Source: Escherichia phage RB16. Taken from it: a stretch of DNA of 64,000 nucleotides. The translations under genes and the position numbers were made by a program. The notes beneath the pieces were generated by a model. The model was not told the DNA's origin. It ran no database searches and saw only the letters and a program-made list of their open reading frames with translations. The stretch's first letter is position 1. The number at the start of each line of letters is the position of its first letter. The stretch is taken from the sequence record NC_014467.1; one strand, written 5' to 3'. This document shows positions 10,289 to 41,695 of the stretch, one piece after another.

Positions 10289-10296
10289 GGGGAATA

Positions 10297-11043: not shown

Positions 11044-11052
11044 ATAAGTTAA

Positions 11053-25835: not shown

Positions 25836-26134
25836 GTGGAATATGAGCAAAGTTGATTCGGGATGTTTCGAAGACGAACACCCAGATTTTTAGGGTAGGT
25901 AAAAAGTTGCCATAGGCAAGACAAATCAAACTATAGGACAAACTTACGGATAGCCTAACGCCGAGGTGAGAACGTTAACTTTTGTCCGAGGCGGGTTTGA
26001 GTTCGAAACGCAAGGATCGGACGCTCTAAATACTGGTGTACCCCTTGTGGGGCTTGGCTGGCTGATTAATCAGCTTACGCAGTTTAGAATAGCGGTGTCG
26101 TCACCGCGTTAAAAATCAACTATGCTTCAAAATT

Positions 26135-26167
26135 AAAGCCCCTTCCTTTCGGTTGGGGCTTCTTTTT
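26135..26167. terminator. Bidirectional hairpin terminator between the uvsY-side transcript and uvsW.1
   Basis: aagccccttcctttcggttggggcttctttttt; A-rich on the 5' side and T-rich on the 3' side. Confidence 0.6.
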
Positions 26168-26397
26168 TAGAACTTCTCTTCTTCTCCGGTTTCAAGTTCG
26201 GCTTTGAGTTCTTCACGCCGTCCCTTGATCGCGTCACGCATTGAAATGTCATCGGATGCTGCAACTTCAACTTCCTTGACCCGCGTATTGTAATATTTTT
26301 CCAACTCTTTCAAACCGTCCAATGTACGGCACGAAGCAACTTTATTCATGAAATCATCAATTGCGGCTTCGTTAACGAATTCAGTAAAACTTTTCAT
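26167..26397 (-). CDS. uvsW.1: UvsW.1-like small helical protein
   Basis: 76 aa, the same length as T4 UvsW.1, immediately downstream of uvsW; identity not verified by alignment. Confidence 0.55.
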   Translation of the reverse strand: MKSFTEFVNEAAIDDFMNKVASCRTLDGLKELEKYYNTRVKEVEVAASDDISMRDAIKGRREELKAELETGEEEKF

Positions 26398-26406
26398 CTT
26401 AACCTC

Positions 26407-27906
26407 TTAAATTTCTACCTGTTTGATCACGTAGTCGAATCGTTCTTCATTGTAGATCCGCACACGTTCCATAGCATGTTTCATGCCGTAGTTAGTTGCA
26501 CTATATTTATTTTTGGCTGTCTTCGACTTCGCCAGCGTTGCCAGGTTATCGACGATATCCCATACAGTTGCAAGCGCTTTCGAACCATGCTTACGCAACA
26601 CGCGCCCGATCGACTGCTTAACAACAACGGCAGATTTGCAAGGGTGTGCAAAAATGATGTGATGCAGGTTCTTGATTGAAATACCTGTACTCAGTACCCC
26701 GATCGAACCGATTACAATCAAACCCTTTGTTGATTCCGCAATCTTTTTCATTTCGTTGCGGTCGTCAATGTCCGTATCGCCGTTGATCAATACAACGTTG
26801 TCATAAACCTTGCTTAACTTCTCGTACAGCCATTTTCCGTGTTCTTTATACCGGAACATCACGAATGTGTTTTCGTTCTTCTCACGGGCTAATTTAAGCG
26901 CTAATTTTAGAATCCATGCGTTGCGCCGTGTATGGCTTGTAACGTATTTGATTTCAGTCTGGTAGTCTGCACCCTTCAATTTCTTGATCTCTTCTTCTTT
27001 GTACCGAAGGAAGATTGTGTTAATTTTCAGGTTGGTGACTTGTCCATCATCCATCAAACGACGCGTATCAACTGGTTTAAAGACTTTACCGAACGCACCG
27101 ATGTATTGCATCATGTTCGTTTTCCCTTCTTTCAGGGAACCGGATAAACCCAGTTTGAAAATGCACTGATCCATTGTGTCGATAATCTTTTTGATGCTCA
27201 ACCCTGTTGATAGGTGGCATTCATCAACCATCAGGCACATGAACTGCTGGAACCACTCAGCAGGCATTTTAACCGCTGATTGCCAGGTTGAAACATAGAT
27301 TAGCGCGTTGCTGTTCTTAGCAGTACCGGAACGAATACCCAACATTGCCGATTTCGGAAACAGTCGATAGTTTGCGATGTCCTCAATCATTTGGTCAACC
27401 AGCGCCGTAGTTGGAACGATAATCAGCACTTTTCCGCTGTAATGTTCCAGACACCAACGGGAGATAAGACCCTGAATTAGAGATTTACCCGCTGACGTTG
27501 GCAGGTTCAGAACTCCTCGACGGTTTTTGATACCGTGGAATACGGATTCGCGCTGATACCAGTAAGGATCGATCTGTTTGTCACCGTCATAAACTGGATG
27601 CTCGTTAACCCACTTGTCAAAATCTTCTTGCGTGATATCCTCTGTCTCGTGGATCTTCGGATCTACCCAGATTGAATAACCGCGTGATTCTGCGAATTTT
27701 GTTACCAGATAGGCTAACCCATACGGGAGTTTTCCGTTGTAGTCCATCAGGTAAATGTACCCGTTCCATCCACCATATTTGTATTTGGCTTGATACTGAT
27801 AGCCTGGAGGCTGGAATGAAAAATAGTCACGAAGTTCATAGACAATGTTTGCTTCTGCCTGAATCTGTACGTGGCTTGTGTTTAAAAATTTGACTTCAAT
27901 ATCCAC
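26407..27906 (-). CDS. uvsW: UvsW DNA/RNA helicase (SF2)
   Basis: 499 aa; Walker A LPTSAGKS, DECH box; matches T4 UvsW as recalled (ILNLPTSAGKSLIQ, KILIIVPTTAL, GLSGSL.DGKANIMQY.G.FG.IFKPV.T..LM.DGQVT.LKIN.IFLRY, TVWD..D); initiates on GTG. Confidence 0.9.
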   Translation of the reverse strand: MDIEVKFLNTSHVQIQAEANIVYELRDYFSFQPPGYQYQAKYKYGGWNGYIYLMDYNGKLPYGLAYLVTKFAESRGYSIWVDPKIHETEDITQEDFDKWVNEHPVYDGDKQIDPYWYQRESVFHGIKNRRGVLNLPTSAGKSLIQGLISRWCLEHYSGKVLIIVPTTALVDQMIEDIANYRLFPKSAMLGIRSGTAKNSNALIYVSTWQSAVKMPAEWFQQFMCLMVDECHLSTGLSIKKIIDTMDQCIFKLGLSGSLKEGKTNMMQYIGAFGKVFKPVDTRRLMDDGQVTNLKINTIFLRYKEEEIKKLKGADYQTEIKYVTSHTRRNAWILKLALKLAREKNENTFVMFRYKEHGKWLYEKLSKVYDNVVLINGDTDIDDRNEMKKIAESTKGLIVIGSIGVLSTGISIKNLHHIIFAHPCKSAVVVKQSIGRVLRKHGSKALATVWDIVDNLATLAKSKTAKNKYSATNYGMKHAMERVRIYNEERFDYVIKQVEI

Positions 27907-27977
27907 TATGATTACCCTATGTACAAAGTATATAGGTATTTATTGCCTAAATATTGAATAAACACTGGAGATAGACA

Positions 27978-28634
27978 ATGAAAATTGATTACGAATTGGT
28001 AGAAGGGTTCCGTGCTCTGCCTACTAAAGAACAGAAAGGCGCACTGGCTGACTACGCTCAAAGCACCTTCGAAGTAAAACTGAACAAACAAAAATCATTC
28101 GATAACATGCTGGCTGATCTGGAAGCTGCTGTACCAGCGGAAGAAAAACCGGAACTGTTGATTGATTCCCCAGAACCAGAAATAGTTTCGTACACTGGTA
28201 GCTCTATGATGGATGAACCTGTTGTTAACGCTCCGAACATTCCTGATGTGGTTGTCGATGTGTCGCAGGACTTTATGAATTACGTCAAAGAAGTTGCGCC
28301 GGAAGTGGCTGACCAGATTCAATTAGTACCTGATGTTGTAGAAGCTCCTGTAACCGCTTCTGACGAGTCCAAAGCTGATACGGCATGGTTGGATGGTTTT
28401 AGTCCTACCATCGTTCTGATGGGGCGTAGCGCTCGTTCTAACGGCTATTATACGTGTCCCTGGTGGATCTATGATTGGATTAAGAAAAATCCAGATTGGT
28501 ACAAAGATCCTGACCAATGTCCACACTACAGCGCACGGGATACCCTGAAATCGCTGGTGTACTACATCAAGCGTGATGGTCAAGTTACTGTGCGTGAAAC
28601 TCGCAACAGCAGTTTCGACACCTTCAAGTTTTAG
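27978..28634 (+). CDS. Hypothetical protein; C-terminal region shares a PWWIYD motif with the 29689..30192 product
   Basis: 218 aa; acidic, Pro/Val-rich middle; C-terminal CPWWIYDWI. Confidence 0.4.
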   Translation: MKIDYELVEGFRALPTKEQKGALADYAQSTFEVKLNKQKSFDNMLADLEAAVPAEEKPELLIDSPEPEIVSYTGSSMMDEPVVNAPNIPDVVVDVSQDFMNYVKEVAPEVADQIQLVPDVVEAPVTASDESKADTAWLDGFSPTIVLMGRSARSNGYYTCPWWIYDWIKKNPDWYKDPDQCPHYSARDTLKSLVYYIKRDGQVTVRETRNSSFDTFKF

Positions 28635-28654
28635 CACTTTTTGCTAAAATCTGG

Positions 28655-28683
28655 TTGACTCATACCCCGCTTTAAAGTATATT
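28655..28683 (+). promoter_or_regulatory. Sigma70-like early promoter (TTGACT-N17-TATATT)
   Basis: Hexamers at 28655-28660 and 28678-28683 upstream of the 28734 gene. Confidence 0.35.
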
Positions 28684-28733
28684 TGTACTCGAAGGCGGGG
28701 GAAAGGCTCTCGCAGTGAAAGAAGGAAAGCAAA

Positions 28734-29051
28734 ATGAAAAACGAAATGATGAAAAATGCTTATTATCCGGTTCTGTTTGTTTGGGGCGGGGAAAAAGTTA
28801 AAACTATCGTTAATTCACAAGCTCCGTATTACACTGTTGGTGAAGCACTTCGTCATGCCGCCGAAGCTGATTATCCGGTATCATTTGAACCTGGTTATGC
28901 TCGTTGGAATGGTTCTAAATGGGTTGCTGATAGCTGGGACAACTACGAAGAATCAAGAATGGAACATGATCCTGATTATGTTTCTCGCCAGATGGAAGCG
29001 CACATGATTGCAGACCGTCGCCTCGATAACGAAGCTCGCGGGTTCTGGTAA
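28734..29051 (+). CDS. Hypothetical protein
   Basis: 105 aa ORF with GGAAAG SD; followed by a hairpin/T-run. Confidence 0.4.
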   Translation: MKNEMMKNAYYPVLFVWGGEKVKTIVNSQAPYYTVGEALRHAAEADYPVSFEPGYARWNGSKWVADSWDNYEESRMEHDPDYVSRQMEAHMIADRRLDNEARGFW

Positions 29052-29056
29052 AATTT

Positions 29057-29082
29057 AAGGGGGCGAAAGCCTCCTTTTTTAT
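29057..29082 (+). terminator. Hairpin plus T-run
   Basis: aagggggcgaaagcctcctttttt. Confidence 0.5.
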
Positions 29083-29091
29083 AGGTGAAGA

Positions 29092-29661
29092 ATGAACAAA
29101 TTAAACCATGAATGTCTGAAAGATTTGTCAGATGGTAAAGAAATCGAGAACGTTATATTCCTCGATATTGACGGCGTGTTAAATAATATGCGCTCTATGA
29201 AATTCGGTGAACATATGGACATCGAATGTGCGCGACATCTACGCCGGATCGTCAACCATGCAAATTGTGATATCGTTGTTTCTTCAACGTGGCGCATGGG
29301 GAACACGACACACACCCTACGCGAAATCCTGTACCCCTGGGGATTGTATCGCGTTATAGGCCGAACCTGTAGCAACATGGTTGGTAATCGTGTGCGTGGT
29401 GATGAAATAAAGGCGTGGATCGATACGTTCGGATGTAAGAACTATATGATCCTTGATGATGATTGTGATATGTTGCCAGAACAAAAAGATCACTTCGTCA
29501 GAACAGATCCTGAAATCGGGCTTACCGAAGAACAATCAACCTTTGCGATCCGCAATATATTTGGAGTAACAACCCCGTTTTGTCCTGAATGCAACGGCTA
29601 CGGGCGCGTGAACCAATACGATAAATGCGGTAGCTGTAACGGTAAAATATTGCGTCTATAA
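29092..29661 (+). CDS. HAD-superfamily phosphatase-like protein with C-terminal zinc ribbon
   Basis: Motif I FLDIDGVL, motif II VVSSTWR, motif III K...ILDDD; C-terminal CPECNGYGR...CGSCNGK. Confidence 0.55.
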   Translation: MNKLNHECLKDLSDGKEIENVIFLDIDGVLNNMRSMKFGEHMDIECARHLRRIVNHANCDIVVSSTWRMGNTTHTLREILYPWGLYRVIGRTCSNMVGNRVRGDEIKAWIDTFGCKNYMILDDDCDMLPEQKDHFVRTDPEIGLTEEQSTFAIRNIFGVTTPFCPECNGYGRVNQYDKCGSCNGKILRL

Positions 29662-29664
29662 ATA
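29657..29664 (+). promoter_or_regulatory. T4-type late promoter TATAAATA upstream of the 29689 gene
   Basis: Exact TATAAATA, then AAGAGG SD, then ATG at 29689. Confidence 0.55.
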
Positions 29665-29688
29665 CAGAAAAACTAAGAGGTTTCAATA

Positions 29689-30192
29689 ATGGCTACTGAA
29701 AAATGGACTACGGTTCACCCTATCCCGTGGCGTAACACCAGCTTTACCTATCTTCCGTGGTGGATCTATGATATCATTGTTGCTGCTAATACGGCAGGTG
29801 GAGATTGGCGTGATTACGCAGAAGAAAAATATGCGAAAGAATTCGACACGCTGAAACAAGCATATATCGACTATACCGATGTTGATTTCATCGAATCTCG
29901 CAACGGCTACCTGTACAAACTCAGTGATTTTACTCCGGCTGATCCGGTTGTTACTATCACCCCGAAAACTGCCCCTGCTGATTTTAAAGTAGGCGATCCT
30001 GACCTTGCTGCAACCGATCTGTTTACTATCGATCCGAGCGGTACGGCTATGACTCTGACTGTGGATTCCTCTGGTCATGCGTCGATCGTTGGCGGTAAAC
30101 TCCACGCTGTAAGCGCTGGTGATGTTGTTGTAACTGCGACCTCCGGTTCTGTTACTGCAAACCTGACTGTAAATGTTAAAGTTGCTCCATAA
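29689..30192 (+). CDS. Late-expressed protein with C-terminal bacterial Ig-like (Big_2-type) domain; candidate virion decoration protein
   Basis: 167 aa; N-terminal PWWIYD motif; C-terminal TVDSSGHASIVGGKLHAVSAGDVVVTATSGSVTANLTVNV resembles Big_2; late promoter upstream. Confidence 0.45.
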   Translation: MATEKWTTVHPIPWRNTSFTYLPWWIYDIIVAANTAGGDWRDYAEEKYAKEFDTLKQAYIDYTDVDFIESRNGYLYKLSDFTPADPVVTITPKTAPADFKVGDPDLAATDLFTIDPSGTAMTLTVDSSGHASIVGGKLHAVSAGDVVVTATSGSVTANLTVNVKVAP

Positions 30193-30207
30193 CTAAGAAG
30201 GTAAAAC

Positions 30208-30708
30208 ATGCTTCTATTCGAATTCAATGATGTATTCTCGAAGTTTAGTGATGCAATTCAGGCAAAATTCGGCAAACGTCCCGAAAACATGACAGAAACA
30301 GAATACAATACTGCTGTTTCGTCCCTGGTTCGTACAGATTTCTATGAAAAGCTGGCGATCGAGGTTTTGGGCTGGGATATGATGAAATGGGGTATGACTT
30401 ATCGCGATCGCGAAGTCGGTTTTATTCTCGTCAACGAGGTTAAAAGCCCGTTGTGGGTGAATAACCAAAAAATTGCATACATGGATAAAGTGTGTGCGGA
30501 AATGGGTATTGTACGTCTGGATTTCTGGATGTGTAAAGATCTGAATGAACTGAAAGGCCATGCTTATCGATGCCCTCTGATTTCTCGCAACGAGAAACAT
30601 CGTCAAGCATGGGATAGCGCTGGCAAGTATCGCAGTGTATATCTGAATGATGACATGAACATCACTATCCAGGATGTGAACCGCGCCTTTGCGGATTACA
30701 CACCATAA
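30208..30708 (+). CDS. Hypothetical protein
   Basis: 166 aa ORF; ends at a bidirectional terminator. Confidence 0.4.
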   Translation: MLLFEFNDVFSKFSDAIQAKFGKRPENMTETEYNTAVSSLVRTDFYEKLAIEVLGWDMMKWGMTYRDREVGFILVNEVKSPLWVNNQKIAYMDKVCAEMGIVRLDFWMCKDLNELKGHAYRCPLISRNEKHRQAWDSAGKYRSVYLNDDMNITIQDVNRAFADYTP

Positions 30709-30713
30709 ACAAA

Positions 30714-30742
30714 AAAGGGAACCGCAATGGTTCCCTTTCTTT
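30714..30742. terminator. Bidirectional hairpin terminator between convergent genes
   Basis: aagggaaccgcaatggttccctt flanked by A-run and T-run. Confidence 0.6.
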
Positions 30743-31205
30743 TTACAGCTTTCTAACTTCTTTCAACGCTTCTTCTTTGCTACCAACGAAGAGGATCGCT
30801 TTTCCTCCCGCTTTCCTGAAAGGTAATACTGCTTTCGCTCTGTCATCGAACAGTACACCCTGACTTGCATAGGCTGCTTTTTCGCCGCTGCTTTTGGTGT
30901 AGTGGAATTCAGGCAGATACCCAAACAGTTTAACAAGCGCTTTACGTTTTTGTTCTGCAACTTTTTCGGAATTGTATTTACCGACACTGGTCAAGATCGC
31001 AACCTCGCCTAATGTTCTCATATGACAGAACAGCGCAACACCCTCTTCAATCGGTTTTAAATTTTCGTAGAAGTCGGTTTTAGATATTGCCTCTTTTGCC
31101 TTTTTGAGTTCATCCTCTGGCATTCTTGCCGGATCACCATACATCGGTATGAAAGAACCTTCCCAATCGAACAGTACACCATCCATATCAAAGAAAAAAT
31201 TTCAT
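30743..31205 (-). CDS. HAD-superfamily phosphatase (5'(3')-nucleotidase / polynucleotide-phosphatase-like); 5' end shows a one-nucleotide frame offset
   Basis: Track ORF 30743..31186 begins MDGVLFDWEG and therefore lacks the nucleophile Asp of the DxDG motif. An ATG at 31205 with a GAGGA SD sits in the +1 frame and reads MKFFL-stop across a T6 run; removing one T gives MKFFFDMDGVL. Confidence 0.55.
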
Positions 31206-31254
31206 ATCAATTCCTCGCTTTGTGTGTGCATCATATTCATATATGTTCTCATTG

Positions 31255-32088
31255 TCAACCCCATGTGTCTGTTTTAGGTGCGTATGCTGCAACTTTAGCC
31301 ACTAATTCCTTATCAAGCTGATCGATAGATTTCTGTGCTTTGCCTTTTGCCTTAACTTTGATGTAGTTAGACTTGACAACGAACATACCGCCTTTGTCAG
31401 ATTTCTTGATTTCGCTATCGATACCAACTTTGTTAAAGCTGATCCAGATATCACCATCCATGTATTGTTTCAGTGAATCACCCATGTTCAGGATCTTAGC
31501 CATAGTAAGCGCTGCTCCTTCGTGGGTATCCATAAGGATCTCTTTAGGAACCACACGGTCACGTTTCAGGTTCTGCTGCATAGCAATATGAACATCGTTC
31601 ATTACCCAAACGATATGGATGTTTTCTTTATGATATCCCAGCGTTTCAACGTCACGGGCAATGCTTGCCAGCTTGCTCATGCTTTTTAGGGTAACGTCGA
31701 AAATCAGGTTTGGTTTGCGGTCTTCTGGTGCTGCTGCAATACCAGCATAAACACGCGCCTGGTTTTTGTTGGATACGTTGAAAACGTCTGCGATCACATG
31801 ATGCAGGGTTGCCACGTTATCCGGGTTTTTCAAGTTCATGGTTTTAACATCATGACCAGTTTTAGCTTTGATTTCTGCCGCCAGTTTGGTGCTACCCATT
31901 ACCAGCTTTTTCAGTGCGTCAACGTCCAGTGTGATTCCTTCGATACCTAACAGTTTTTCGAGGGTAAAACCTTTACCGGAACCCGCACCGCCAGCCAGGA
32001 TCACAACCTGACCAAATTTAGGATATGCCTTGCCGCCAAACGTAATCAACGCTTCGTCAAGGGATACAAAGTCTTTGAATGATTTCAT
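31255..32088 (-). CDS. P-loop kinase with NMP-kinase-like Walker A; putative nucleotide/polynucleotide kinase
   Basis: 277 aa; LAGGAGSGKGF resembles the adenylate/UMP-CMP kinase P-loop GxPGxGKG; immediately upstream, on the same strand, of the HAD phosphatase. Confidence 0.45.
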   Translation of the reverse strand: MKSFKDFVSLDEALITFGGKAYPKFGQVVILAGGAGSGKGFTLEKLLGIEGITLDVDALKKLVMGSTKLAAEIKAKTGHDVKTMNLKNPDNVATLHHVIADVFNVSNKNQARVYAGIAAAPEDRKPNLIFDVTLKSMSKLASIARDVETLGYHKENIHIVWVMNDVHIAMQQNLKRDRVVPKEILMDTHEGAALTMAKILNMGDSLKQYMDGDIWISFNKVGIDSEIKKSDKGGMFVVKSNYIKVKAKGKAQKSIDQLDKELVAKVAAYAPKTDTWG

Positions 32089-32120
32089 CTTAGAACTCCA
32101 GGGTTATTTTAATATATTTA

Positions 32121-32150
32121 TTGACACCGTTTATTGGTTGGGTTTATAGT
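32121..32150 (+). promoter_or_regulatory. Sigma70-like early promoter (TTGACA-N18-TATAGT)
   Basis: Hexamers at 32121-32126 and 32145-32150 in the divergent intergenic region upstream of the 32201 gene. Confidence 0.35.
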
Positions 32151-32200
32151 GAAGTTGTTCGACGGATAGGCCGGAAGAACTTTAACCATAAGGTAAAATC

Positions 32201-33106
32201 ATGAAAATGCAATTGAATCACTTCATCAAATCCGCTGCTGCTGGCGACCAATCAAAATACAAATCAAACCGCAATCATAGTCTGGATAAAGATTTTGCCG
32301 ACTTCCTGGGGTTCAAACGTTGGCATACTCCGGTTATGCGTCCAGACTGCGATCCCAAATACGATTACCCGCGTTGGGGCATGAGTCGTCACGCTGTCGT
32401 TAAAAACATCCGTGTAATGTCGTTCCGCAATCTGTATGGTAGCTGCATCATCGAAATTGCAAACGAGCGAGACATCATTCTTCCTAATGGATGGAAACTC
32501 GCTGATTTAGTAAAAACCCTGATCCAGATACGTAAAGAATATAAAAACGGGTACATCCGTTCTATGGAATCATTGGGGGCTTATAGCGGTGAAGACTATC
32601 GCGAATGGCAATCAGTTGCGAAATACCTGATCAACAGTGTGTTCGGTATTATTTGTAGCAAAGGATCTGCAATCAATCTTGGTGGTCATGAGGTGATTGC
32701 TCGTGCTCGTGAAAAGGTTGCCGAAGCTATAAACCAGATCATTGCTTCCGGTGGTACGGTTCTTCATGTGAACGTAGATGAAATCGCGTATGTTGGTAAA
32801 CAGGTTGATATTCCTAACGTTCATCACGAACGATTCAACAACGCCGTTTTCACTGGCTTCCGTGGTGCTATGTGGGGAGACCATGCCATTATAAGCGGCC
32901 CTGTTCCTACTCTTCGTTTTGATATGGATGATTGGGAACCTAGCAGACATTATCGCCTTTCTGATGAAGAACAACGCGCCTCTGCTCTGCGTATGATTGA
33001 TAGCCGTCGTGATCGATTGGTAAAAGAACTCAATGAGTACATGAACAAAACGAAAGAAGAAGTTTTACGTGAACTTAACGTTGACTGTGATTCCATTTCG
33101 TTGTAA
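32201..33106 (+). CDS. Hypothetical protein
   Basis: 301 aa ORF with SD; no motif I can assign. Confidence 0.4.
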   Translation: MKMQLNHFIKSAAAGDQSKYKSNRNHSLDKDFADFLGFKRWHTPVMRPDCDPKYDYPRWGMSRHAVVKNIRVMSFRNLYGSCIIEIANERDIILPNGWKLADLVKTLIQIRKEYKNGYIRSMESLGAYSGEDYREWQSVAKYLINSVFGIICSKGSAINLGGHEVIARAREKVAEAINQIIASGGTVLHVNVDEIAYVGKQVDIPNVHHERFNNAVFTGFRGAMWGDHAIISGPVPTLRFDMDDWEPSRHYRLSDEEQRASALRMIDSRRDRLVKELNEYMNKTKEEVLRELNVDCDSISL

Positions 33107-33134
33107 GCTGTAGTCTCTAAACAAGGAGATACAC

Positions 33135-33452
33135 ATGAAAACTATTCACTGTCGCGAAGAACACACTGTTTATTACCACGGATCGTGTACTGCTGCTGGG
33201 ATTGAAAGCATGTTGTTACCTCCTTGTGCGTCTGAAACTCTGTCAGAGAAAGGCAGAAAGAAAAACTTAGACCGTGTTTTCTTCACCGCTGATATAGGTT
33301 TAGCCCGTATCTATGCTGGAAGGGCTGCACGGTCAATAGGTGGCGATCCGGTACTGTATCGGGTTGTGTGTCCGGTTGACGCGGTATGTATGAACGACGA
33401 CAAAGGCGCGAGTGTTTATCATGCTGCATGGGCTTTTTGTGAGGAAATATGA
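33135..33452 (+). CDS. Hypothetical protein
   Basis: 105 aa ORF with GGAGA SD. Confidence 0.3.
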   Translation: MKTIHCREEHTVYYHGSCTAAGIESMLLPPCASETLSEKGRKKNLDRVFFTADIGLARIYAGRAARSIGGDPVLYRVVCPVDAVCMNDDKGASVYHAAWAFCEEI

Positions 33453-33616
33453 ATGATCGTGTTTTAGCAATTCTCGTTTTCCTTCTGGGGTATCGGGTTG
33501 AAGTATTGGGTTGGTATATGGCGCTTAATGGTGATCTGACCGCAATTTGGATGGTTTCATTAGGCATTCTGTTTACTTTCTTATCGTGTGATATCGACAA
33601 TAGGGCTACCCAATGA
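33449..33616 (+). CDS. Small hydrophobic protein (about 55 aa, two predicted membrane-spanning stretches); not in the ORF track
   Basis: ATG at 33449 overlaps the upstream stop (ATGA) and its stop overlaps the next gene's ATG at 33613 (ATGA); translation MNDRVLAILVFLLGYRVEVLGWYMALNGDLTAIWMVSLGILFTFLSCDIDNRATQ. Confidence 0.4.
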   Translation: MNDRVLAILVFLLGYRVEVLGWYMALNGDLTAIWMVSLGILFTFLSCDIDNRATQ

Positions 33617-33939
33617 AACTATTTTATGTAGTGTATAGCGGTATGGTTAATGTTGATGTTCCCTTGCTTTCCGTCGAAACGATTGATACACTCGAAGGGA
33701 AGATCGGAAAACGTTTTAAAACTACCGTATCAGAAATCAGTACGGTGTTTGTTGACCATCCGTCAGATCTGGAAAATTTAATCAACACTCTCGATGATTT
33801 GCAAATCCCGTTTGCTGAAATTTATCATCACCAATCGGGGCTGTATTTGATTGTGACATTTGTTCTAAAAAATGTTGACAGCAGAAATCCAGAAGTGCTA
33901 GATTTTATCCGTAACATTGATTCAAATAAAGGAAAGTGA
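33613..33939 (+). CDS. Hypothetical protein
   Basis: 108 aa ORF, translationally coupled to its neighbours. Confidence 0.3.
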   Translation: MKLFYVVYSGMVNVDVPLLSVETIDTLEGKIGKRFKTTVSEISTVFVDHPSDLENLINTLDDLQIPFAEIYHHQSGLYLIVTFVLKNVDSRNPEVLDFIRNIDSNKGK

Positions 33940-34280
33940 TTATGAAAATCGTTCAGCGTAATATCAGCGAAGTTAGCCAGGAAGAAAAAGTTCAGATCCA
34001 TTTCAAATTCAATGATCTGAAACGTGGTTATGCAGAAATTGCCCGTGTTCATAAGTTGGACAATGGCGACATTTATATGATTGTCCAGGAAATTGAACGA
34101 ATCCGCGCTTTCCGTGCCGAAAACCCGAAAGTAAAACGTGTTCTTCGTCGTGTGTATGTGAATAAACATCGTAAAGCTGCGAAACCAGTTAAACCAAAAC
34201 GCGAACCGCGTCCAGACAACAAACGCAAAGCAATTAACGGCGCTATGGCGTTGGCTTTCCAGGAAGCAGGTTTAGTGTAA
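33936..34280 (+). CDS. Hypothetical protein with basic C-terminal tail
   Basis: 114 aa; C-terminus K/R/P-rich (KPVKPKREPRPDNKRK). Confidence 0.35.
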   Translation: MIMKIVQRNISEVSQEEKVQIHFKFNDLKRGYAEIARVHKLDNGDIYMIVQEIERIRAFRAENPKVKRVLRRVYVNKHRKAAKPVKPKREPRPDNKRKAINGAMALAFQEAGLV

Positions 34281-34289
34281 GGGGTTAAC

Positions 34290-34817
34290 ATGAGTCGTAG
34301 AAATATGGAACGCTGGAATACTATTGTAACCAGCAGTATCAAACCTGTTGCGCCAGCGTTCAAGGAAGTTGTAGAAGAAACTCCGGTTAAAACACAGACT
34401 GTTGTATCTTTGAGTGAAGATGATTTAGAGCACCGTCGCCGTGCGAATCAAATTGAATTCGATCTGCGTATTGCTCGTTCATACAACAGCAAAAACGATG
34501 ATGCGCGTAGTCGTAACCTGCAATTTGCTCTTACGTTGGGCGATTGGACTGTGTTAATGAGTCAAACTACTTGTGCGTATTCCGGCAAGGTGTTTAGCAC
34601 TCGCGGAGACAGCCCGAACTCTCGAACGATGGAACGTATTAACCCTATGTTGGGCTATACCCCAGAAAACACGATCGCAGTGACAAAAGCCGCTAACAGT
34701 GAAAAATCATCACTCGACGCGTTCATGAAGGGTTCTGTAATCCTTCCAGAAGTAAAACTGAAACTGTTACGCAAAGCCGCGTACCAAATTGAAAAACAAC
34801 TGAAAATTAAAGGTTAA
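34290..34817 (+). CDS. Hypothetical protein with HNH-like arrangement (uncertain)
   Basis: CAYSGK ... ERINP ... N...V...N.EK spacing resembles an HNH His-Me finger, but with Glu where the first His would be. Confidence 0.3.
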   Translation: MSRRNMERWNTIVTSSIKPVAPAFKEVVEETPVKTQTVVSLSEDDLEHRRRANQIEFDLRIARSYNSKNDDARSRNLQFALTLGDWTVLMSQTTCAYSGKVFSTRGDSPNSRTMERINPMLGYTPENTIAVTKAANSEKSSLDAFMKGSVILPEVKLKLLRKAAYQIEKQLKIKG

Positions 34818-34821
34818 TATT

Positions 34822-35865
34822 ATGTTTGTGAAATATTCTTCTCTTACGAACCATTATGAAGGTAAATTCATCAATGGTGTGATCATGAATGGTTTGACGG
34901 GCGGTGTGTGGGTTGCTCGTGAAAAGATCCACGGTGCAAACTTTAGTCTGATGACTTCTGACGGAGAAAAGGTTATTCCGGCAAAACGTAGCGGTGAAAT
35001 CCTCCCTACTGAACAGTTTTACGGTTGTGAACCTGTTGTTGCTCGATATGCCCCAGCAATCCGTAAACTGTGGGATGCCCTCAATACTGCACAGCAGGTT
35101 AGCGGGATTTACGATGCGCCGCTGGTAATTCAGGTATACGGAGAATTCGCAGGGCGTGGTGTTCAGAAAGATGTTGACTACGGTGAAAAAGATTTCTACG
35201 TGTTTGATATCCGTGTGAATGGTAATTTCCTACCTGATAACGTTGTTGCGACCTATGCCGTTGCTGTTGGTTTGAAAATGGCCCCGCTGTTAGCATACGG
35301 CACTTTTGACGAGATCCGAGCACTTCCGATCACGTTTGATTCAGTGGTTAACCTGGCGAACTCCGGCGCGATTCCTGCACATAACGGGGTTGAACCTGAA
35401 TTCAAAAACTTCATGACGCTGAAAGATGGTGAAGGTGAGAACATCGCAGAAGGTTTCGTAATGAAGCCCGTACACCCTGCTTTCATGCCGAACGGTGACC
35501 GTGTTGCAATCAAATGCAAAACGACGAAGTTTAGCGAGAAGAAAAACAAACAAGCGAACCGCTTCAATGCTCCGGCTGAACTGTCGGAAAATGATAAAGT
35601 TAAACTGGATGTGTTCACCTGCTACCTGACAGAAAACCGCGTTAAAAACGTCCTGTCTAAAATTGACAGCGCGAACCTTACCGCGAAAGACTTCGGTCGC
35701 GTCATGGGGCTGACTGTACAGGATGCTCTTGAAGAAATCGAACGCAACTACGGACCGTTTATCGAACAGTTTGAAAACCCGACGCTGGCGAAGAAAACTT
35801 TCACCAACGAAGCCTCAAGCCTGATTCGTACAAACTGGGGCGCAATCCTGAACAATGAATTTTAA
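34822..35865 (+). CDS. rnlB: RNA ligase 2 (Rnl2)
   Basis: 347 aa; matches T4 Rnl2 as recalled: MF.KYSSL.NHY..KFI, LTGG.WVAREKIHG.NFSL (lysine nucleophile motif KIHG), VDYGEKDFYVFDI, NGNRVAIKCK..KFSEKK, DFGRVMGLTVQD.LEE. Confidence 0.9.
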   Translation: MFVKYSSLTNHYEGKFINGVIMNGLTGGVWVAREKIHGANFSLMTSDGEKVIPAKRSGEILPTEQFYGCEPVVARYAPAIRKLWDALNTAQQVSGIYDAPLVIQVYGEFAGRGVQKDVDYGEKDFYVFDIRVNGNFLPDNVVATYAVAVGLKMAPLLAYGTFDEIRALPITFDSVVNLANSGAIPAHNGVEPEFKNFMTLKDGEGENIAEGFVMKPVHPAFMPNGDRVAIKCKTTKFSEKKNKQANRFNAPAELSENDKVKLDVFTCYLTENRVKNVLSKIDSANLTAKDFGRVMGLTVQDALEEIERNYGPFIEQFENPTLAKKTFTNEASSLIRTNWGAILNNEF

Positions 35866-36439
35866 AACTGTTCTCGAAAACGCAAAAACGGCTACCCTGA
35901 TCGGTAGCCGTGAACCCCCCGAACGTATAGCAAACATCGCTATCAAGATCGGACGTGCATTAAGTGATCGAGGTATTTTAGCTTATTCTGGTGGTGCTCC
36001 TGGAATGGATAGCCATTTCTTGTTTGACTACGCACCAGAAAGACGGCGCATAATTCTCCCTGAAAACGGTTTTAACGGGCTTTGCTCGAATGGTATGGAT
36101 ATTATCGACTATAACGAGTTAGACACGTACAAAGCCGCTGATGAAGCGAGAAAGGTATCTGGGAACTTCGATTACCAAAACGAATGGACACAAAGGCGTT
36201 ATGCGAGAAATGCAGTTCAGATATTGCGCGAAAATTTAGACAGCCCGACTGACTTCGTGTTATTTTGGGCTATCGAAAAGGATTTTTGTGTCAAGGGCGG
36301 TACGGCTATCGCAACACGCCTTGCACGATTATACGGTGTTCCCAGTTTCAACCTGTGGAAAGAAAACGTATTGAATGATGTTTGTGATACTTTGGGGATT
36401 AATATCAAACCTCCAACTTTGGATTTTCTCTGGTGCTAA
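35855..36439 (+). CDS. DprA/Smf-like Rossmann (SLOG superfamily) protein
   Basis: 194 aa; TATLIGSREPP....IG..LSDRGILAYSGGAPGMD resembles the DprA/SLOG nucleotide-binding core (.GSR....G.....A..G....SG.A.G.D); overlaps the rnlB stop by 11 nt. Confidence 0.45.
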   Translation: MNFKTVLENAKTATLIGSREPPERIANIAIKIGRALSDRGILAYSGGAPGMDSHFLFDYAPERRRIILPENGFNGLCSNGMDIIDYNELDTYKAADEARKVSGNFDYQNEWTQRRYARNAVQILRENLDSPTDFVLFWAIEKDFCVKGGTAIATRLARLYGVPSFNLWKENVLNDVCDTLGINIKPPTLDFLWC

Positions 36440-36460
36440 CTCCCGAACAATCACGTAATT

Positions 36461-36934
36461 ATGAACGCCTCTCAGTTGAAGAGGCACTTAAAAAGGTTAA
36501 GAACAATGGTAGAGATCAACGGAATCGGGGTGAACCCGAACGCGGGAATGACAATTTCAAAGAACGATCCTCGTTGCGGTCGTAGTCCTACGCTGGCAGA
36601 ACGTGCGCGTAAGCTGGTAGAGGAAACAAACGGCAAGATGTTTGAAACATGCCGTGAAGAAATCACCCGCAATATTCTAAGTTTCCCAACAAAACAATCA
36701 TACACGTTTGATATGAAACGTTTTGTTGGTACGACGATGGGGCAAGAATGCACCAAACGTGCGTTTGATATGATCGGGGAATGGCTGACCGAAGAAGGTT
36801 TAACCTATGAAACCCAGGCAGGAAGAACGTCTGTCGCAATACAATACGCAATGAGTAGTCGCCGTATTTCAGGAAGCACTACCGTACCTGAAAGAACTGG
36901 GTATAGTGAATACACGTATTTCATCACCTGGTAA
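36461..36934 (+). CDS. Hypothetical protein
   Basis: ORF; the ATG at 36506 (MVEINGIG) has a better SD than the track start. Confidence 0.35.
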   Translation: MNASQLKRHLKRLRTMVEINGIGVNPNAGMTISKNDPRCGRSPTLAERARKLVEETNGKMFETCREEITRNILSFPTKQSYTFDMKRFVGTTMGQECTKRAFDMIGEWLTEEGLTYETQAGRTSVAIQYAMSSRRISGSTTVPERTGYSEYTYFITW

Positions 36935-36952
36935 AAAAGATTGAAATAGTTG

Positions 36953-36980
36953 TTGACGGGAGTTCTGATTATGATAAGAT
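36953..36980 (+). promoter_or_regulatory. Sigma70-like early promoter (TTGACG-N16-TAAGAT)
   Basis: Hexamers at 36953-36958 and 36975-36980 upstream of the 37022 gene; same -10 hexamer as the 45645 promoter. Confidence 0.35.
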
Positions 36981-37021
36981 AGCTCCCGTAGACAAGACAA
37001 CTAACCCAGAAGGAAAACATC

Positions 37022-37291
37022 ATGGAAATCAAATTAATCCCTACTTGCGCTGGTTACTGCTTGGCACTGAACGGTGTAGCAAACAACGGCAAAGGCTTAC
37101 GGGCTAACGTTGAAGCAATGCTGAATGAACTGGCGTTGCGGAGTGAACCTGGGATGCAGTATGAGTATGATGACGTTGCAACCAGCGTTAAAATCTCTAA
37201 TCTGGTAATGGATGGTGTTGACTGTGCGGGTTGGTGGGATTGCTACATCGACTATGCAGACAATCGGGTTTTCTTACTGACCAGCAACTAA
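37022..37291 (+). CDS. Hypothetical protein
   Basis: 89 aa ORF downstream of a promoter-like element. Confidence 0.35.
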   Translation: MEIKLIPTCAGYCLALNGVANNGKGLRANVEAMLNELALRSEPGMQYEYDDVATSVKISNLVMDGVDCAGWWDCYIDYADNRVFLLTSN

Positions 37292-37299
37292 GGAATGTT

Positions 37300-37710
37300 A
37301 TGAAAGATTATATTTCAGAAGCAGAAGCGCTTGAAGAAAGCGGTTTTCAAGTCACCATTGACGATGAAGAAGATGGTGGCTATGATGGCGGTGTTATGTG
37401 GGGGCTTAAACGTCCACAACGTAAAACTCCTGTTCAATATTCTGATGGTTCGGTAAGATACGAAACGGTTGTTAAAGAAGTAAACGGGCGCGTCATTACG
37501 TCCGAACGGCAGAAGGACATTAAACAGTTGTATGATGTCGCAAAAGCCGCTAAAGTAGGAACCGAGATTGTTTGTCCGGTGTGCAAAGAGAAACACAAGA
37601 AGACGACCTATCATAAGGTGTTCTGCTCTAATGGCAAAAAATCCAGGAAAGACTGTAAGAGTAAATACTGGAACACGATTCATCCTGAACGTTTGGATCG
37701 TATCTTTTAA
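37300..37710 (+). CDS. Hypothetical protein with C-terminal Cys cluster
   Basis: ATG at 37300 with AAGGAA SD (track start 37231 overlaps the upstream gene); CPVCKEKHKK...CSNGKKSRKDC. Confidence 0.35.
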   Translation: MKDYISEAEALEESGFQVTIDDEEDGGYDGGVMWGLKRPQRKTPVQYSDGSVRYETVVKEVNGRVITSERQKDIKQLYDVAKAAKVGTEIVCPVCKEKHKKTTYHKVFCSNGKKSRKDCKSKYWNTIHPERLDRIF

Positions 37711-37732
37711 TCAAAACGTGGAGTACGTTTAA

Positions 37733-39166
37733 ATGAAAACTTTTAATGAACTGAATAGCATCATCACCTCAACCGATTCCTACAAAGTGTCCCACTGGAT
37801 GCAGTATCCGAAAGGCACTGACGCAGCGATGTTCTATATTGAATCTCGCGGTGGTAAATTTGATGAAGTCGTAACCGCTGGCGTTAACTACGTTGCGCGG
37901 GTTCTCGCTGAACCAATTACCATGAAGCAGGTTGAGTTAGCGCGGGTACTTTACCGTAAACACTTCGGAAAAGAGATCTTTAACTACGAAGGGTGGAAAA
38001 AGATTGCTGAACTGGGTTATACCCCTGTAATTTTCCGTGCGATCCCAGAAGGTACGGTTGTTCCGGTGAAAAATGCCGTTGCGACTGTGTACGCCGAAAA
38101 CGAGTTCTCGTGGCTGGCTGGGTGGCTGGAAACAATGACGATTCGCGGTATCTGGTATCCGTCATCTGTAGCAACGCTATCGCGTGAGTGTAAAAAGGTT
38201 CTGGCACACTACCTTGATATGACTTCTGACCTTACTGGTGAAGCATATAACATCACACTGGGTACACGTCTGCATGATTTTGGGGCGCGGGGCGCGACCT
38301 CTGCTGAATCTGCTGGCATTGGTGGGCTGGCACACCTTTATAACTTCATCGGCACTGATACCGTAGAAGGGATGATTATGGCAATCAGCCTCTTTGCGGA
38401 TTATCAAACACTGTTTGATGAAGTTGAAAACGTAGAAGTGGCTGGGGTTTCCATCCCTGCTCGTGAGCATTCAACTACGATTTCCTACGGTAAAGAAAAC
38501 GAAGACGAAGCATATAAAAACAGCATTGAAATGTTCGGTGATGGGTTCTACGCTTGCGTATACGATTCATGGGACTACAAAGCCGCTGTTGACCGGATCG
38601 ATAGTTATAAAGAGAAAATCATTGCATCTGGCGGTGTGTTGGTAGTGCGTCCAGACTCAGGGGATATGATCGACAACATCATGTACACCTTGCGCAAACT
38701 GGGGCAAATCTTCGGATATACTGTCAACTCCAAAGGGTACAAAGTTCTTCATAACTCTGTTCGTATCATCCAGGGTGACGAGATCCACGGGCCTGAAACA
38801 ATCAACCGTGTATTAAGCTGGATGGAAGCGAACAAATGGTCGAGCGAAAACATTGCGTTCGGTATGGGTGGCGGTTTGCTGCAAGAAGTTACCCGCGATA
38901 CCCAGAAATATGCTGAAAAACTTTGCGCTATCCGTATCAACGGTGTGTGGAAAGGCGTTTACAAATGCCCGAAAGGTTCGGAATGGAAAAAGAGCAAGAA
39001 AGGTTTATTGATGACCATCACTAACGGGATGGAATTCAAGACAATCGATTCTCTCGAAGAATCTATTCCTGTTGGGTGGTTTGATGCGATGGTAACTTAT
39101 TACGACAATGGTTATCTGAACAAAACCAACACTTTAGGGGGAATTCGTGAGCGTAGCCGGATTTAA
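37733..39166 (+). CDS. nadV: Nicotinamide phosphoribosyltransferase (NAMPT / NadV)
   Basis: 477 aa; N-terminal signature TDSYKVSHW and GARGATS...GIGG..H typical of the NAMPT family; this length fits NadV. Confidence 0.85.
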   Translation: MKTFNELNSIITSTDSYKVSHWMQYPKGTDAAMFYIESRGGKFDEVVTAGVNYVARVLAEPITMKQVELARVLYRKHFGKEIFNYEGWKKIAELGYTPVIFRAIPEGTVVPVKNAVATVYAENEFSWLAGWLETMTIRGIWYPSSVATLSRECKKVLAHYLDMTSDLTGEAYNITLGTRLHDFGARGATSAESAGIGGLAHLYNFIGTDTVEGMIMAISLFADYQTLFDEVENVEVAGVSIPAREHSTTISYGKENEDEAYKNSIEMFGDGFYACVYDSWDYKAAVDRIDSYKEKIIASGGVLVVRPDSGDMIDNIMYTLRKLGQIFGYTVNSKGYKVLHNSVRIIQGDEIHGPETINRVLSWMEANKWSSENIAFGMGGGLLQEVTRDTQKYAEKLCAIRINGVWKGVYKCPKGSEWKKSKKGLLMTITNGMEFKTIDSLEESIPVGWFDAMVTYYDNGYLNKTNTLGGIRERSRI

Positions 39167-39455
39167 TATCCGCGCCAACGATAACGGATCTGTAATCTTC
39201 TATAACAATCAGCCCCTTGTTGCTCGCAAGGGGCTTTTTTGTAAGTTAGTTGGGTATGGGTTCAAGTTGGAACAGGTGGATAACGCAACACTAAAAGAGA
39301 TCGTGCGTATAGCCTATCTCCTGAAAGATAAGAAAGATGAACATAAGGCGGTTGCAATGCTGGAGAAATTGGGAGAAAATCATTGCTTCATCATAAATCG
39401 TGGATACAAATACGATACAATCGCTTTATTTGAAAAAGGGCTTAGTGAACTATGA
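39147..39455 (+). CDS. Hypothetical protein
   Basis: 102 aa ORF (GTG start) between nadV and dam; ATGA overlap with dam. Confidence 0.3.
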   Translation: MSVAGFNIRANDNGSVIFYNNQPLVARKGLFCKLVGYGFKLEQVDNATLKEIVRIAYLLKDKKDEHKAVAMLEKLGENHCFIINRGYKYDTIALFEKGLSEL

Positions 39456-40303
39456 ATTATTTGGGTGTAATACCTTACACGGGCAACAAGCAGAATTTAT
39501 TGCCTAAGTTGTTTGAACTCTTTCCAGATCGCAGACATTATCATCGATTCGTTGATTGTTTTTGTGGTGGATTGAGTGTGTCGCTAAACGTCCCCAAACC
39601 CGTTCTAAGCAACGATTACGATAAGACGCTGATTGATATGTATGAGCGTCTTAAAACGCTTCCTGACCTGTCTCCGGTGCGAGAATTGATTGCATCAAAG
39701 GGGCTGGGGAAAGACAAGAAAGAAGAGTATTTGAAATTCCGTGATGAATACAACCAGAACAAAGATCCGTTATGGCTCTATGTCCTGATCCTGCATTCAT
39801 TCAGCAACGTTAACCGGACAAACGACAAAGGCGATTTTAACGCTGCTGTAGGAAAACGAACCCTCAACTTTATGACAGAAAAACGTTTCGAACATTTCAA
39901 AAAGAATGTGACAGGAATTGAATTTCGTTCTGGTTCATACTCTGATATTGAAATCAACGATAACGATTTTGTTTATTGCGATCCTCCGTATCTAATCACT
40001 GATGCGGTGTATAACAAATTCTGGAACGCAGATCGCGAACGCGAGTTATATGCTTTCCTTGACTCCCTGCATGAGCGGGGCATTTGGTTTGGTTTGTCTA
40101 ACGTGACTCACCATGCCGGAAAACAAAACGATATCCTGATTGAATGGATGAAGAAATACACCGTTCATAACCTGGATAAAAAGTATCTGTTAGGGCAACA
40201 CACAGAATCCTATGAGCAAAACAAAACACAGGAGGTGTACGTGTGCAACTACCAGAAACGAGAAGTAAATACATTCCCACAAACACTAGATGATTTAATG
40301 TAG
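39452..40303 (+). CDS. dam: DNA adenine methyltransferase (Dam)
   Basis: 283 aa; matches T4 Dam as recalled: YTGNKQ.LLP.L...FP, RFVD.FCGGLSVSLN, DFVY.DPPYLIT...YNKFW, RGI.FGLSNV..H.GK.N. Confidence 0.9.
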   Translation: MNYLGVIPYTGNKQNLLPKLFELFPDRRHYHRFVDCFCGGLSVSLNVPKPVLSNDYDKTLIDMYERLKTLPDLSPVRELIASKGLGKDKKEEYLKFRDEYNQNKDPLWLYVLILHSFSNVNRTNDKGDFNAAVGKRTLNFMTEKRFEHFKKNVTGIEFRSGSYSDIEINDNDFVYCDPPYLITDAVYNKFWNADRERELYAFLDSLHERGIWFGLSNVTHHAGKQNDILIEWMKKYTVHNLDKKYLLGQHTESYEQNKTQEVYVCNYQKREVNTFPQTLDDLM

Positions 40304-40309
40304 GTTAAC

Positions 40310-40582
40310 ATGTTTAAAATTTATGGCTATATCCCTTCCGTATACAATTGCGCTCCGTGCCTGAACTCGAAACGACTGTTGGACGCAAAGAAACATGAAT
40401 ATGAATTCTTATCTGTTGCTGATTCCAAAGGCGAAGACGGCAAACCGATCCTGAATGAATCTGTGATTGATGAACTCGAAGCCCTGACGGGTACGCGCAA
40501 AATGTCAATGCCTCAGATTTTCCACGATGGGAAACACATTGGCGGGTTCGACCAACTTCGTGAGTATGTCCGCACCCTGTGA
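40310..40582 (+). CDS. nrdC: Glutaredoxin/thioredoxin NrdC
   Basis: 90 aa; matches T4 NrdC as recalled: MFK.YGY, C..C redox motif, MPQ.F..G.HIGGFDQLREY. Confidence 0.8.
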   Translation: MFKIYGYIPSVYNCAPCLNSKRLLDAKKHEYEFLSVADSKGEDGKPILNESVIDELEALTGTRKMSMPQIFHDGKHIGGFDQLREYVRTL

Positions 40583-40615
40583 TAAATATCTTTACTTATT
40601 ATTGAGGGGATAATT

Positions 40616-41695
40616 ATGCAAGATTACGGACACTGGAAAACTCTAAAGGATGTTGACATTAGTAATTACTTGGGATTTGTCTACGTAATTACATTTGAAA
40701 ATGGTAAAAAATACGTGGGGGCTAAAAAGATATGGAAACGTATAAAAGTTCCTCCATCTTCGTTTAAGCGCGGCCCCCGAAAGGGTTTTGAAGAATCGGA
40801 CTGGAAAACGTATACATCATCATCGAAAGAAGTTAATGATATGATTTCCAGTGGAATACAACCTAAAGATTATTTGATTGTTGGTTGGTATGATTCATGG
40901 GGTAAAACTTTGTTAGCAGAGGCTGAAATGCAATTCTCTAACGATGTTCTCCGAAATCCTGAATGGTTGAACAAGCAAATCGGTGGTCATTTTAATCCTA
41001 ACTGTTTTGATGATTTGACTTATGAAGACATCGAAAGGTACATGCATTTCGATAAAGGGAATGAACACACATCGTGGCCCGTAATGTATCGAGTTGGTAG
41101 TAAAACGAAATATGTTAACCCTGATGAAGTAGAATCACATTTACAGCAAGGTTGGCAGTTCGGAAGAAGTAGATTAGAAAAGTTGTCTGTTGTCTGTGTT
41201 GTTAGCAAATATAAACTTTATAATACAAAAACTGATGAAGTTGTTGAAGTTGTTAATCAAAATGAATTTGCGCGACAGCATAATATAGAATCGGGACACT
41301 TGACAAATTTGTTGAAAGGTTCTACTGATAGTGTGGGTGATTGGACATTATTGCCAGAAGTCAGAAGAAAGAACTATGTCATCGAAGATGATAAAGGTAA
41401 TAAATTCTCGTCTGTGTCTGAATGTGAAAGAGCTAATGGATTGAAACGAGGTGCTGCTACTTCTCTATGTAAAAAAGGGATCTATAAGAAAATGGTTCCT
41501 GAATCCAGGACTCTTTATAAGAAACGGTTATCAACTATTAACTATGTTGAATCTTGTCGTGTTGAATCTGTTTCTAAGATAACAGAAAACAGTTTTCGTG
41601 GTCTTGTTCCAGATCTTGCTGTATTGCATGATTCGAAAGAATCTGTTATTCTGTGGCTTGAACAATACATATCCTATCTAAAGGCAATGAAATGA
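40616..41695 (+). CDS. GIY-YIG homing endonuclease (seg-like) inserted between nrdC and nrdD
   Basis: 359 aa; N-terminal GFVYVITFENGKKYVGAKK (GIY-YIG); long C-terminal region consistent with DNA-binding modules; ATGA overlap with nrdD. Confidence 0.7.
   Translation: MQDYGHWKTLKDVDISNYLGFVYVITFENGKKYVGAKKIWKRIKVPPSSFKRGPRKGFEESDWKTYTSSSKEVNDMISSGIQPKDYLIVGWYDSWGKTLLAEAEMQFSNDVLRNPEWLNKQIGGHFNPNCFDDLTYEDIERYMHFDKGNEHTSWPVMYRVGSKTKYVNPDEVESHLQQGWQFGRSRLEKLSVVCVVSKYKLYNTKTDEVVEVVNQNEFARQHNIESGHLTNLLKGSTDSVGDWTLLPEVRRKNYVIEDDKGNKFSSVSECERANGLKRGAATSLCKKGIYKKMVPESRTLYKKRLSTINYVESCRVESVSKITENSFRGLVPDLAVLHDSKESVILWLEQYISYLKAMK

Follow-up and report, generated by a model that had tools for sequence, protein, structure and literature searches.

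Phage NAD+ salvage systems

NAD+ salvage by the enzyme pair NadV and NatV is reported to have been first characterised in vibriophage KVP40 (Lee, Li & Miller 2017, J Bacteriol 199:e00855-16). The pathway was later named NARP2 (Osterman et al., bioRxiv 10.1101/2024.02.11.579819). The nicotinamide phosphoribosyltransferase (Nampt) of KVP40 joins nicotinamide to PRPP to form NMN, with a preference for PRPP over ADPR-pyrophosphate (ADPR-PP); the KVP40 Nmnat converts NMN to NAD+ (bioRxiv 10.1101/2024.02.11.579819). Together, the two proteins restored and raised NAD+ during infection and abolished defence by type I Thoeris and DSR2. In the same study, 94% of the phages whose Nampt is of the KVP40 type also had an Nmnat gene somewhere in the genome, and the metabolic cost of NARP2 was raised by the authors. 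The suggestion of a sequence-only reading of the present DNA, i.e., that phage NAD+ salvage genes are tied to countering NAD-depleting defence, is in line with this literature.

The second described system is NARP1, found in Bas63, Felixounavirus and SPbeta-like phages. Its enzyme, Namat, is homologous to NadV and serves the same purpose, i.e., NAD+ rebuilding in infection. However, the substrate of NARP1 is ADPR-PP, and a Prs-like Adps encoded next to Namat is required. In bacteria, NadV and NadM enzymes of known structure (7yqo for NadV; 2qjo and 2qjt for NadM) are the closest counterparts.

Genome context

The window, i.e., the whole 64-kb stretch of DNA that was analysed, was compared with phage-collection records by megablast. 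No end-to-end match was found among these records, and the window represents a mosaic member of the genus Pseudotevenvirus. The nadV region showed 99.7% identity to Buttiauxella phage vB_ButM_GuL6 and 98% to Escherichia phage RB43, both of which are Straboviridae of this genus. Positions 1..11046 of the window showed 99.5% identity to RB43, positions 26084..40588 showed 97% identity to GuL6, and identities elsewhere were 78-92%. Position 1 of the window corresponds to position 114147 of RB43. At the other end, the window and the RB43 record stop at the same base in the alignment, which shows that an RB43-like genome of approximately 178-180 kb ends with the 64 kb of the window.

The nadV gene and its product

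The gene and its putative ribosome-binding site were assigned as follows:

37733..39166, plus strand: nadV, nicotinamide phosphoribosyltransferase (Nampt), 477 aa, from Pfam, NCBIfam, PHROG and PDB matches
37720..37723, plus strand: GGAG, Shine-Dalgarno-like, 9 nt 5' of the nadV ATG, by direct reading

The ORF starts with ATG, and the motif TDSYKVSHW, from which a NAMPT-family NadV had been proposed, is located at residues 14-22 of the 477 aa protein. Profile and structure searches confirmed the family. In Pfam, the N-terminal NAMPT domain (PF18127 NAMPT_N, 1.4e-24, 86.7 bits against a cutoff of 25) and the type II PRTase barrel (PF04095 NAPRTase, 3.2e-38, 132.3 bits against a cutoff of 20.8) were both recognized. 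The protein passed the cutoff of NCBIfam model PRK09198 (NF006629; 455.3 bits, cutoff 405) and matched phrog_448 at 1.3e-162. The best bacterial NAMPT structure, 7yqo, was aligned over the full length (3.9e-104), as were the mammalian NAMPT structures (approximately 5e-85).

The catalytic and substrate-binding residues of mammalian NAMPT, i.e., Tyr18, Phe193, Arg196, Asp219, His247, Arg311, Asp313, Gly353/Asp354, Gly383-385, Arg392 and Lys400, are all identical in NadV when it is aligned to 2gvl and 2h3b. Of these, Asp219 gives amide specificity and His247 is the site of autophosphorylation. The counterparts in NadV are Y17, F183, R186, D209, H246, R306, D308, G348/D349, G379-381, R388 and K396. 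Beside F183 and R186, residues H181 and D182 are also conserved in the alignment to NAMPT structures. Since all the catalytic residues are kept, the nadV product is an intact NAMPT-family enzyme.

A scan for sigma-70 promoters around nadV gave seven sites, fewer than the mean of 11.2 in shuffled controls, and no transcription start was assigned from it.

The partner gene natV

The NMNAT/Nudix partner of NadV was searched in the window by tblastn with the NatV proteins of RB43 and GuL6, and the best hit reached an E-value of only 1.1. HxGH-type and Nudix-box motifs were also absent from a six-frame regex scan of the 64-kb window. The sequence-only reading had stated that such a partner is unrecognisable within the window, and both searches agree with it. 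The further suggestion that the phage is without a canonical partner is not supported, as the partner is encoded approximately 71 kb away from nadV in the closest relatives:

79334..80392 of RB43, minus strand: RB43ORF138c, natV, in RefSeq similar to bifunctional NMN adenylyltransferase/nudix hydrolase
78021..79079 of GuL6, minus strand: GuL6_138, natV, annotated like RB43ORF138c

In both phages, nadV and natV are placed on opposite strands. By the RB43/GuL6 layout, natV is expected approximately 34 kb before position 1 of the window. The partner seems missing because only 64 kb of a genome of approximately 178 kb was in view.

The NatV proteins of RB43 and GuL6 carry the N-terminal nucleotidyltransferase motif GRFQPFHNGH, of the (H/T)xGH type, and the C-terminal Nudix box GGHKNANETFLDCAIRELLEEV, and the second nucleotidyltransferase motif (SxTxxR) was found as LSATDLR in GuL6 NatV. 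In Pfam, RB43ORF138c and GuL6_138 matched CTP_transf_like (2.1e-8) and NUDIX (3.2e-14). Two bifunctional NMNAT/Nudix enzymes of known structure, 2qjo (9.7e-54; Synechocystis slr0787) and 2qjt (1.8e-45; Francisella NadM), were matched by GuL6 NatV over its entire length, and the motifs coincide in the alignments. RB43 NatV is approximately 40% identical to NatV of the KVP40-like phage ValKK3. The Nudix domain of KVP40 NatV is said to hydrolyse ADP-ribose, NAD+ and NADH. With the NCBIfam models of bacterial NadM, the phage proteins did not reach the equivalog cutoffs (best model NF003786, 241.6 bits against 397). The RB43 and GuL6 NatV are intact but form a divergent phage branch, "NadM-like" and not an equivalog under the NCBIfam criterion.

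Co-occurrence of nadV and natV

NatV proteins at least 80% identical to that of GuL6 were found in 60 phage records of the genus, and the present nadV in 61 phage records. Among the nadV matches listed, 24 of 25 were also in the NatV list; the exception, Citrobacter phage KKP_3664 (OK210075), is a partial record of 61.6 kb. The two genes occurred together in every complete-genome record among the matches listed (24/24), at a constant spacing of approximately 70 kb. A canonical NMNAT gene elsewhere in the genome, which the sequence-only reading had named as contrary to its view, is thus present in RB43, in GuL6 and in each of these complete genomes. Judging from genus-wide conservation, natV is almost certainly present in this genome too.

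The distance between the two genes differs among phages. In Aeromonas phage Aes012, 4.5 kb with about a dozen small ORFs separate nadV from natV; in Vibrio phage nt-1, which is KVP40-like, the distance is 16 kb. The placement of nadV and natV apart from each other is normal in T4-like phages. In one genus member, leE, nadV is split by a frameshift; either the pathway is dispensable or this record is in error.

Enterobacteria have two routes from NMN to NAD+, i.e., the NMN adenylyltransferase activity of NadR, or deamidation by PncC to NaMN, from which NadD and NadE complete the route. A phage could have lost natV and let these host enzymes turn the NMN made by NadV into NAD+. Among phages generally, NadV without NatV is common, as NadV-like genes are present in 2016 records and NadM-type partners in only 445. 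However, many of the partnerless NadV-like genes belong to the NARP1 Namat clade and are paired with Adps (bioRxiv 10.1101/2024.02.11.579819), and the NadV of the window falls outside that clade. The pairing in all 24 complete genomes of the genus among the matches listed also speaks against a loss, as do the near-equal counts in the sister genus Slopekvirus, where 117 NadV and 115 NatV records were found in the 60-80% identity band. A NadV that works with host enzymes alone is very unlikely here.

Genes flanking nadV

Four small ORFs adjoin nadV:

36506..36934, plus strand: upstream ORF, phrog_7671 (PHROG without assigned function), no Pfam family at E <= 0.01
37022..37291, plus strand: upstream ORF, phrog_7372 (PHROG without assigned function), no Pfam family at E <= 0.01
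37300..37710, plus strand: upstream ORF, 136 aa, phrog_7424 (PHROG without assigned function), no Pfam match
39147..39455, plus strand: downstream ORF, 102 aa, GTG start, phrog_7497 (PHROG without assigned function), no Pfam match

The upstream region had been described as a single gene at 36461..37710, but the GuL6 annotation and the PHROG matches resolve it into three ORFs. It had also been proposed that a flanking ORF could be a noncanonical partner or regulator of NadV, for which profile searches for nucleotidyltransferase or Nudix folds were suggested. These searches gave no signal for either fold in Pfam and PHROGs, nor in a fold search with ORF 37300..37710.

The N-terminus of the protein encoded at 37300..37710 is acidic, disordered and variable. 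Its C-terminus contains a CxxC...C...C module, in which C92, C95 and C109 are invariant and C119 is nearly so. The AlphaFold model was confident in the C-terminal half only, where the blocks have pLDDT of 69-90. A search of this fold against PDB gave no match (best E 0.67), and in BFVD it was matched only by uncharacterised proteins of unrelated phages, e.g., Salmonella SE5 and Pseudomonas Skulduggery. The model points to a small Cys4 domain, not to a nucleotidyltransferase. For the downstream ORF, homologs formed only eight clusters, all at least 68% identical, and the AlphaFold model, built from only nine close sequences, had a mean pLDDT of 45, too low for use in a fold search.

All four flanking ORFs adjoin nadV in Slopekvirus Roth26 as well, and the block from rnlB to nrdD is syntenic. 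Around nadV of Aes012 and nt-1, none of the four was found. Since the ORFs are kept in the two sister genera and are absent at the Aes012 and nt-1 loci, their position near nadV reflects the shared ancestry of Pseudotevenvirus and Slopekvirus and not a pathway linkage.

Further upstream, ORF 33135..33452 was considered as an Arr-like ADP-ribosyltransferase. The candidate was dropped, as Pfam gave nothing relevant and its family, phrog_2110, is without assigned function.

Hairpin 3' of nadV

A consensus scan predicted a terminator downstream of nadV:

39211..39241, plus strand: intrinsic-terminator-like hairpin, 10 bp stem and 5 nt loop, followed by T6

The hairpin begins 45 nt past the nadV stop, inside ORF 39147..39455. 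Its folding energy was -19.4 kcal/mol (z = -4.36), and none of 200 shuffled sequences was as stable. The stem is invariant in RB43, GuL6 and Roth26; the sole substitution, in Roth26, lies in the loop, and the flanking positions have diverged. It is probably a terminator under selection, at which nadV transcription stops at least in part, and is possibly leaky. A terminator between nadV and most of ORF 39147..39455 argues against obligatory co-expression of the two.

These observations bear on the proposal that the product of a small flanking ORF (36506..37710 or 39147..39455) regulates NadV or acts as a non-canonical NMN adenylyltransferase. In its favour, the downstream ORF shares 20 nt with the end of nadV, carries an SD-like GGGGG of its own and yielded no usable structure model, and the ORFs are conserved beside nadV in two genera, in PHROGs whose function is not assigned. 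Against this, the ORFs have no functional match in Pfam or PHROGs, no HxGH or Nudix motif exists in any frame of the window, and the model of ORF 37300..37710 has no nucleotidyltransferase-like structural match. Their proteins have 89-142 aa, compared with approximately 170-180 aa of the archaeal-type NMNATs among the PDB matches. Furthermore, none of them is near nadV in Aes012 or nt-1, the conserved terminator parts nadV from most of the downstream ORF, and the lineage already has a canonical partner. The proposal is largely refuted, and a role of these ORFs as partner or regulator is highly improbable.

One narrower possibility concerns the hairpin. In RB43 and Slopekvirus, ORF 39147..39455 and the conserved hairpin might form a lineage-specific regulatory device, in which read-through of the terminator would decide whether a small NadV-modulating protein is made, tuning PRPP consumption. 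The gene overlap, the conservation of the hairpin and an ORF without assigned function are all that lies behind this idea, and we regard it as very doubtful. If it were true, the device would address the metabolic cost raised by the NARP2 authors.

Pathway assignment

The NadV of the window is 100% identical to the GuL6 protein. It showed 51% identity to Nampt of nt-1, a KVP40-like phage, and of Aes012, and only 26% to Felixounavirus Namat, the NARP1-type enzyme. Felixounavirus Adps was used as a tblastn query against RB43, 118 kb of GuL6 and the window, and no Adps/Prs homolog was detected (best E 2.1). Pfam search of the ORFs neighbouring nadV detected no Prs domains. Osterman et al. (bioRxiv 10.1101/2024.02.11.579819) list GuL6 protein MT334653_00249 in their supplementary table as "Nmnat-associated", not Adps-associated. 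Its sequence starts MKTFNELNSIITSTDSYKVSHW, as does the NadV of the window. With 51% against 26% identity and no Adps/Prs homolog, NadV belongs to NARP2 and not to NARP1.

Namat and Nampt are homologous, and KVP40 Nampt was weakly active on ADPR-PP in vitro (bioRxiv 10.1101/2024.02.11.579819), but with no Adps/Prs-like gene adjacent to nadV or in the sequences searched, with the far higher identity to KVP40-type Nampt and with the catalogued association of the identical GuL6 protein, it is extremely improbable that this NadV is a NARP1-type Namat joining nicotinamide to ADPR-PP and not a PRPP-using Nampt. The gene is very probably the Nampt of NadV/NatV (NARP2), a phage NAD+ salvage pathway of two enzymes that is already known.

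By analogy to the KVP40 proteins, NadV would join nicotinamide to host PRPP, yielding NMN. NatV/NadM, a fusion of an HxGH nucleotidyltransferase and a Nudix domain, would then adenylylate NMN to NAD+. In this phage lineage, natV is located in the early-gene region on the opposite strand, approximately 71 kb from nadV, and not beside it. The NAD+ raised or restored during infection may counter NAD+ depletion by Thoeris, DSR and SIR2-HerA. Both the enzymatic activities and the anti-defence role of this pair are what we infer from the KVP40 counterparts.

Comparison with known systems

The RB43 group and KVP40 share the same two families of NARP2, i.e., a Nampt with NAMPT_N and NAPRTase domains and a bifunctional HxGH-NMNAT/Nudix enzyme. 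The KVP40-like phages and the RB43 group are both T4-like myoviruses, and nadV and natV are non-adjacent in both. The spacing differs: the RB43 group has the genes approximately 71 kb apart on opposite strands, and in nt-1 the distance is approximately 16 kb. A PnuC-like transporter is present in nt-1, whereas none is annotated in RB43. The pair that was tested experimentally is that of KVP40.

With the bacterial NadV and NadM enzymes (7yqo; 2qjo and 2qjt), those of the RB43 group share full-length alignment and catalytic motifs. The difference is that the RB43-group pair is encoded by a lytic phage and that its NatV falls under the NCBIfam equivalog cutoffs of the bacterial enzymes. The likeness to NARP1 is limited to the homology of Namat and NadV and to the common purpose; the 26% identity and the lack of a detected Adps set the present locus apart from it.

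Significance

The gene, its partner and the counter-defence role are known from the literature, and the NARP2 catalogue already includes a protein identical to NadV of the window. In T4-like genomes, functionally linked genes may sit tens of kilobases apart, and a partner outside the window is therefore not evidence of absence. As a by-product, the analysis gives a genus-level view of nadV and natV co-occurrence, with both genes in 24 of 24 complete-genome records among the matches listed.

Reading frames of natV and nadV in related phages

The natV gene, which encodes the NMN adenylyltransferase/Nudix partner of the nicotinamide phosphoribosyltransferase gene nadV, was inspected in the original record of Escherichia phage RB43.
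79334..80392 of NC_007023.1 (29334-30392 of the RB43 segment L002), minus strand: natV
In this record the gene has lost one nucleotide and, 35 nt away, gained another, each within a short homopolymer run. Approximately 12 codons are scrambled by this indel pair, and the SxTxxR motif is abolished. The stretch reads 'KIYLRPIYDQPSFLH' in the original RB43 record, whereas Buttiauxella phage GuL6 has 'KDLSATDLRPTIFLH'. NatV of re-sequenced RB43 (HE981739 and HE858210) showed 98.3% identity to GuL6 NatV, compared with 95.2% for the original. The indel pair in AY967407/NC_007023 is most likely a sequencing artefact.

The nadV gene of Cronobacter phage leE was annotated as two CDS.
152634..154056 of KX443552.1 (139-1561 of the leE segment L012): nadV
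In tblastn, the frame was found to change near codon 320. The frame change is due to a sequencing error, or else nadV is a true pseudogene in this viable phage.

Genes and signals around nadV

A DprA-like gene was found directly 3' of RNA ligase 2 (rnlB), four genes upstream of nadV.
35855..36439, plus strand: DprA-like (SLOG-type Rossmannoid) protein (phrog_768, 1.7e-58)
Its Pfam DNA_processg_A score was under the cutoff of that family. The arrangement of rnlB, DprA-like gene and nadV is also kept in the sister genus Slopekvirus.

Downstream of nadV, the predicted ORF 39147..39455 contains a canonical intrinsic-terminator hairpin followed by a T6 run.
39211..39241, plus strand: terminator hairpin
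The hairpin is kept in two genera, and the sole change is in the loop. A terminator so placed, approximately 20 codons inside a conserved ORF, is unexpected. Production of this ORF's protein would require terminator read-through, unless the ORF is transcribed separately.

Occupant of the gp49 slot and homing-endonuclease-type genes

In RB43, GuL6 and the Slopekvirus phage Roth26, the gene order is nrdC, gp49 (endonuclease VII) and nrdD. Gene 49 of phage T4 is essential. No gp49 homolog was detectable across the whole window (tblastn, E <= 1e-3), and the slot is occupied by a different gene.
40616..41695, plus strand: SegE-like GIY-YIG endonuclease, 359 aa (Pfam PF19835, 4e-34)
The Cronobacter phages leE and Cronuts have the same arrangement as the window, and only 11 of the 14 Cronobacter records of the genus gave a gp49 match (E <= 1e-60). 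In the window phage, gp49 may have been shifted to another genome site or functionally replaced. One further gene may be relevant to the missing gp49. Among the PHROGs hit by its product are families of HNH endonuclease and of endonuclease VII (phrog_3118, 3.9e-22; phrog_1035, 5.3e-6).
34290..34817, plus strand: protein called 'decoy of host sigma70 (Srd)' in relatives

Two insertions in the window had no alignment to RB43 or GuL6.
11053..11826, plus strand: protein of 257 aa carrying CapR homology domains, flanked by gp14 and gp15
22985..23623, plus strand: GIY-YIG endonuclease of 212 aa whose DNA-binding domain is of the I-TevI type, flanked by gp23 and gp24
At the spot of the former, RB43 has mobE; next to the latter, gp23 is the major capsid gene. 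With these two insertions and the SegE-like gene, the window is rich in free-standing genes of the homing-endonuclease type, and this richness is consistent with its mosaic identity pattern.
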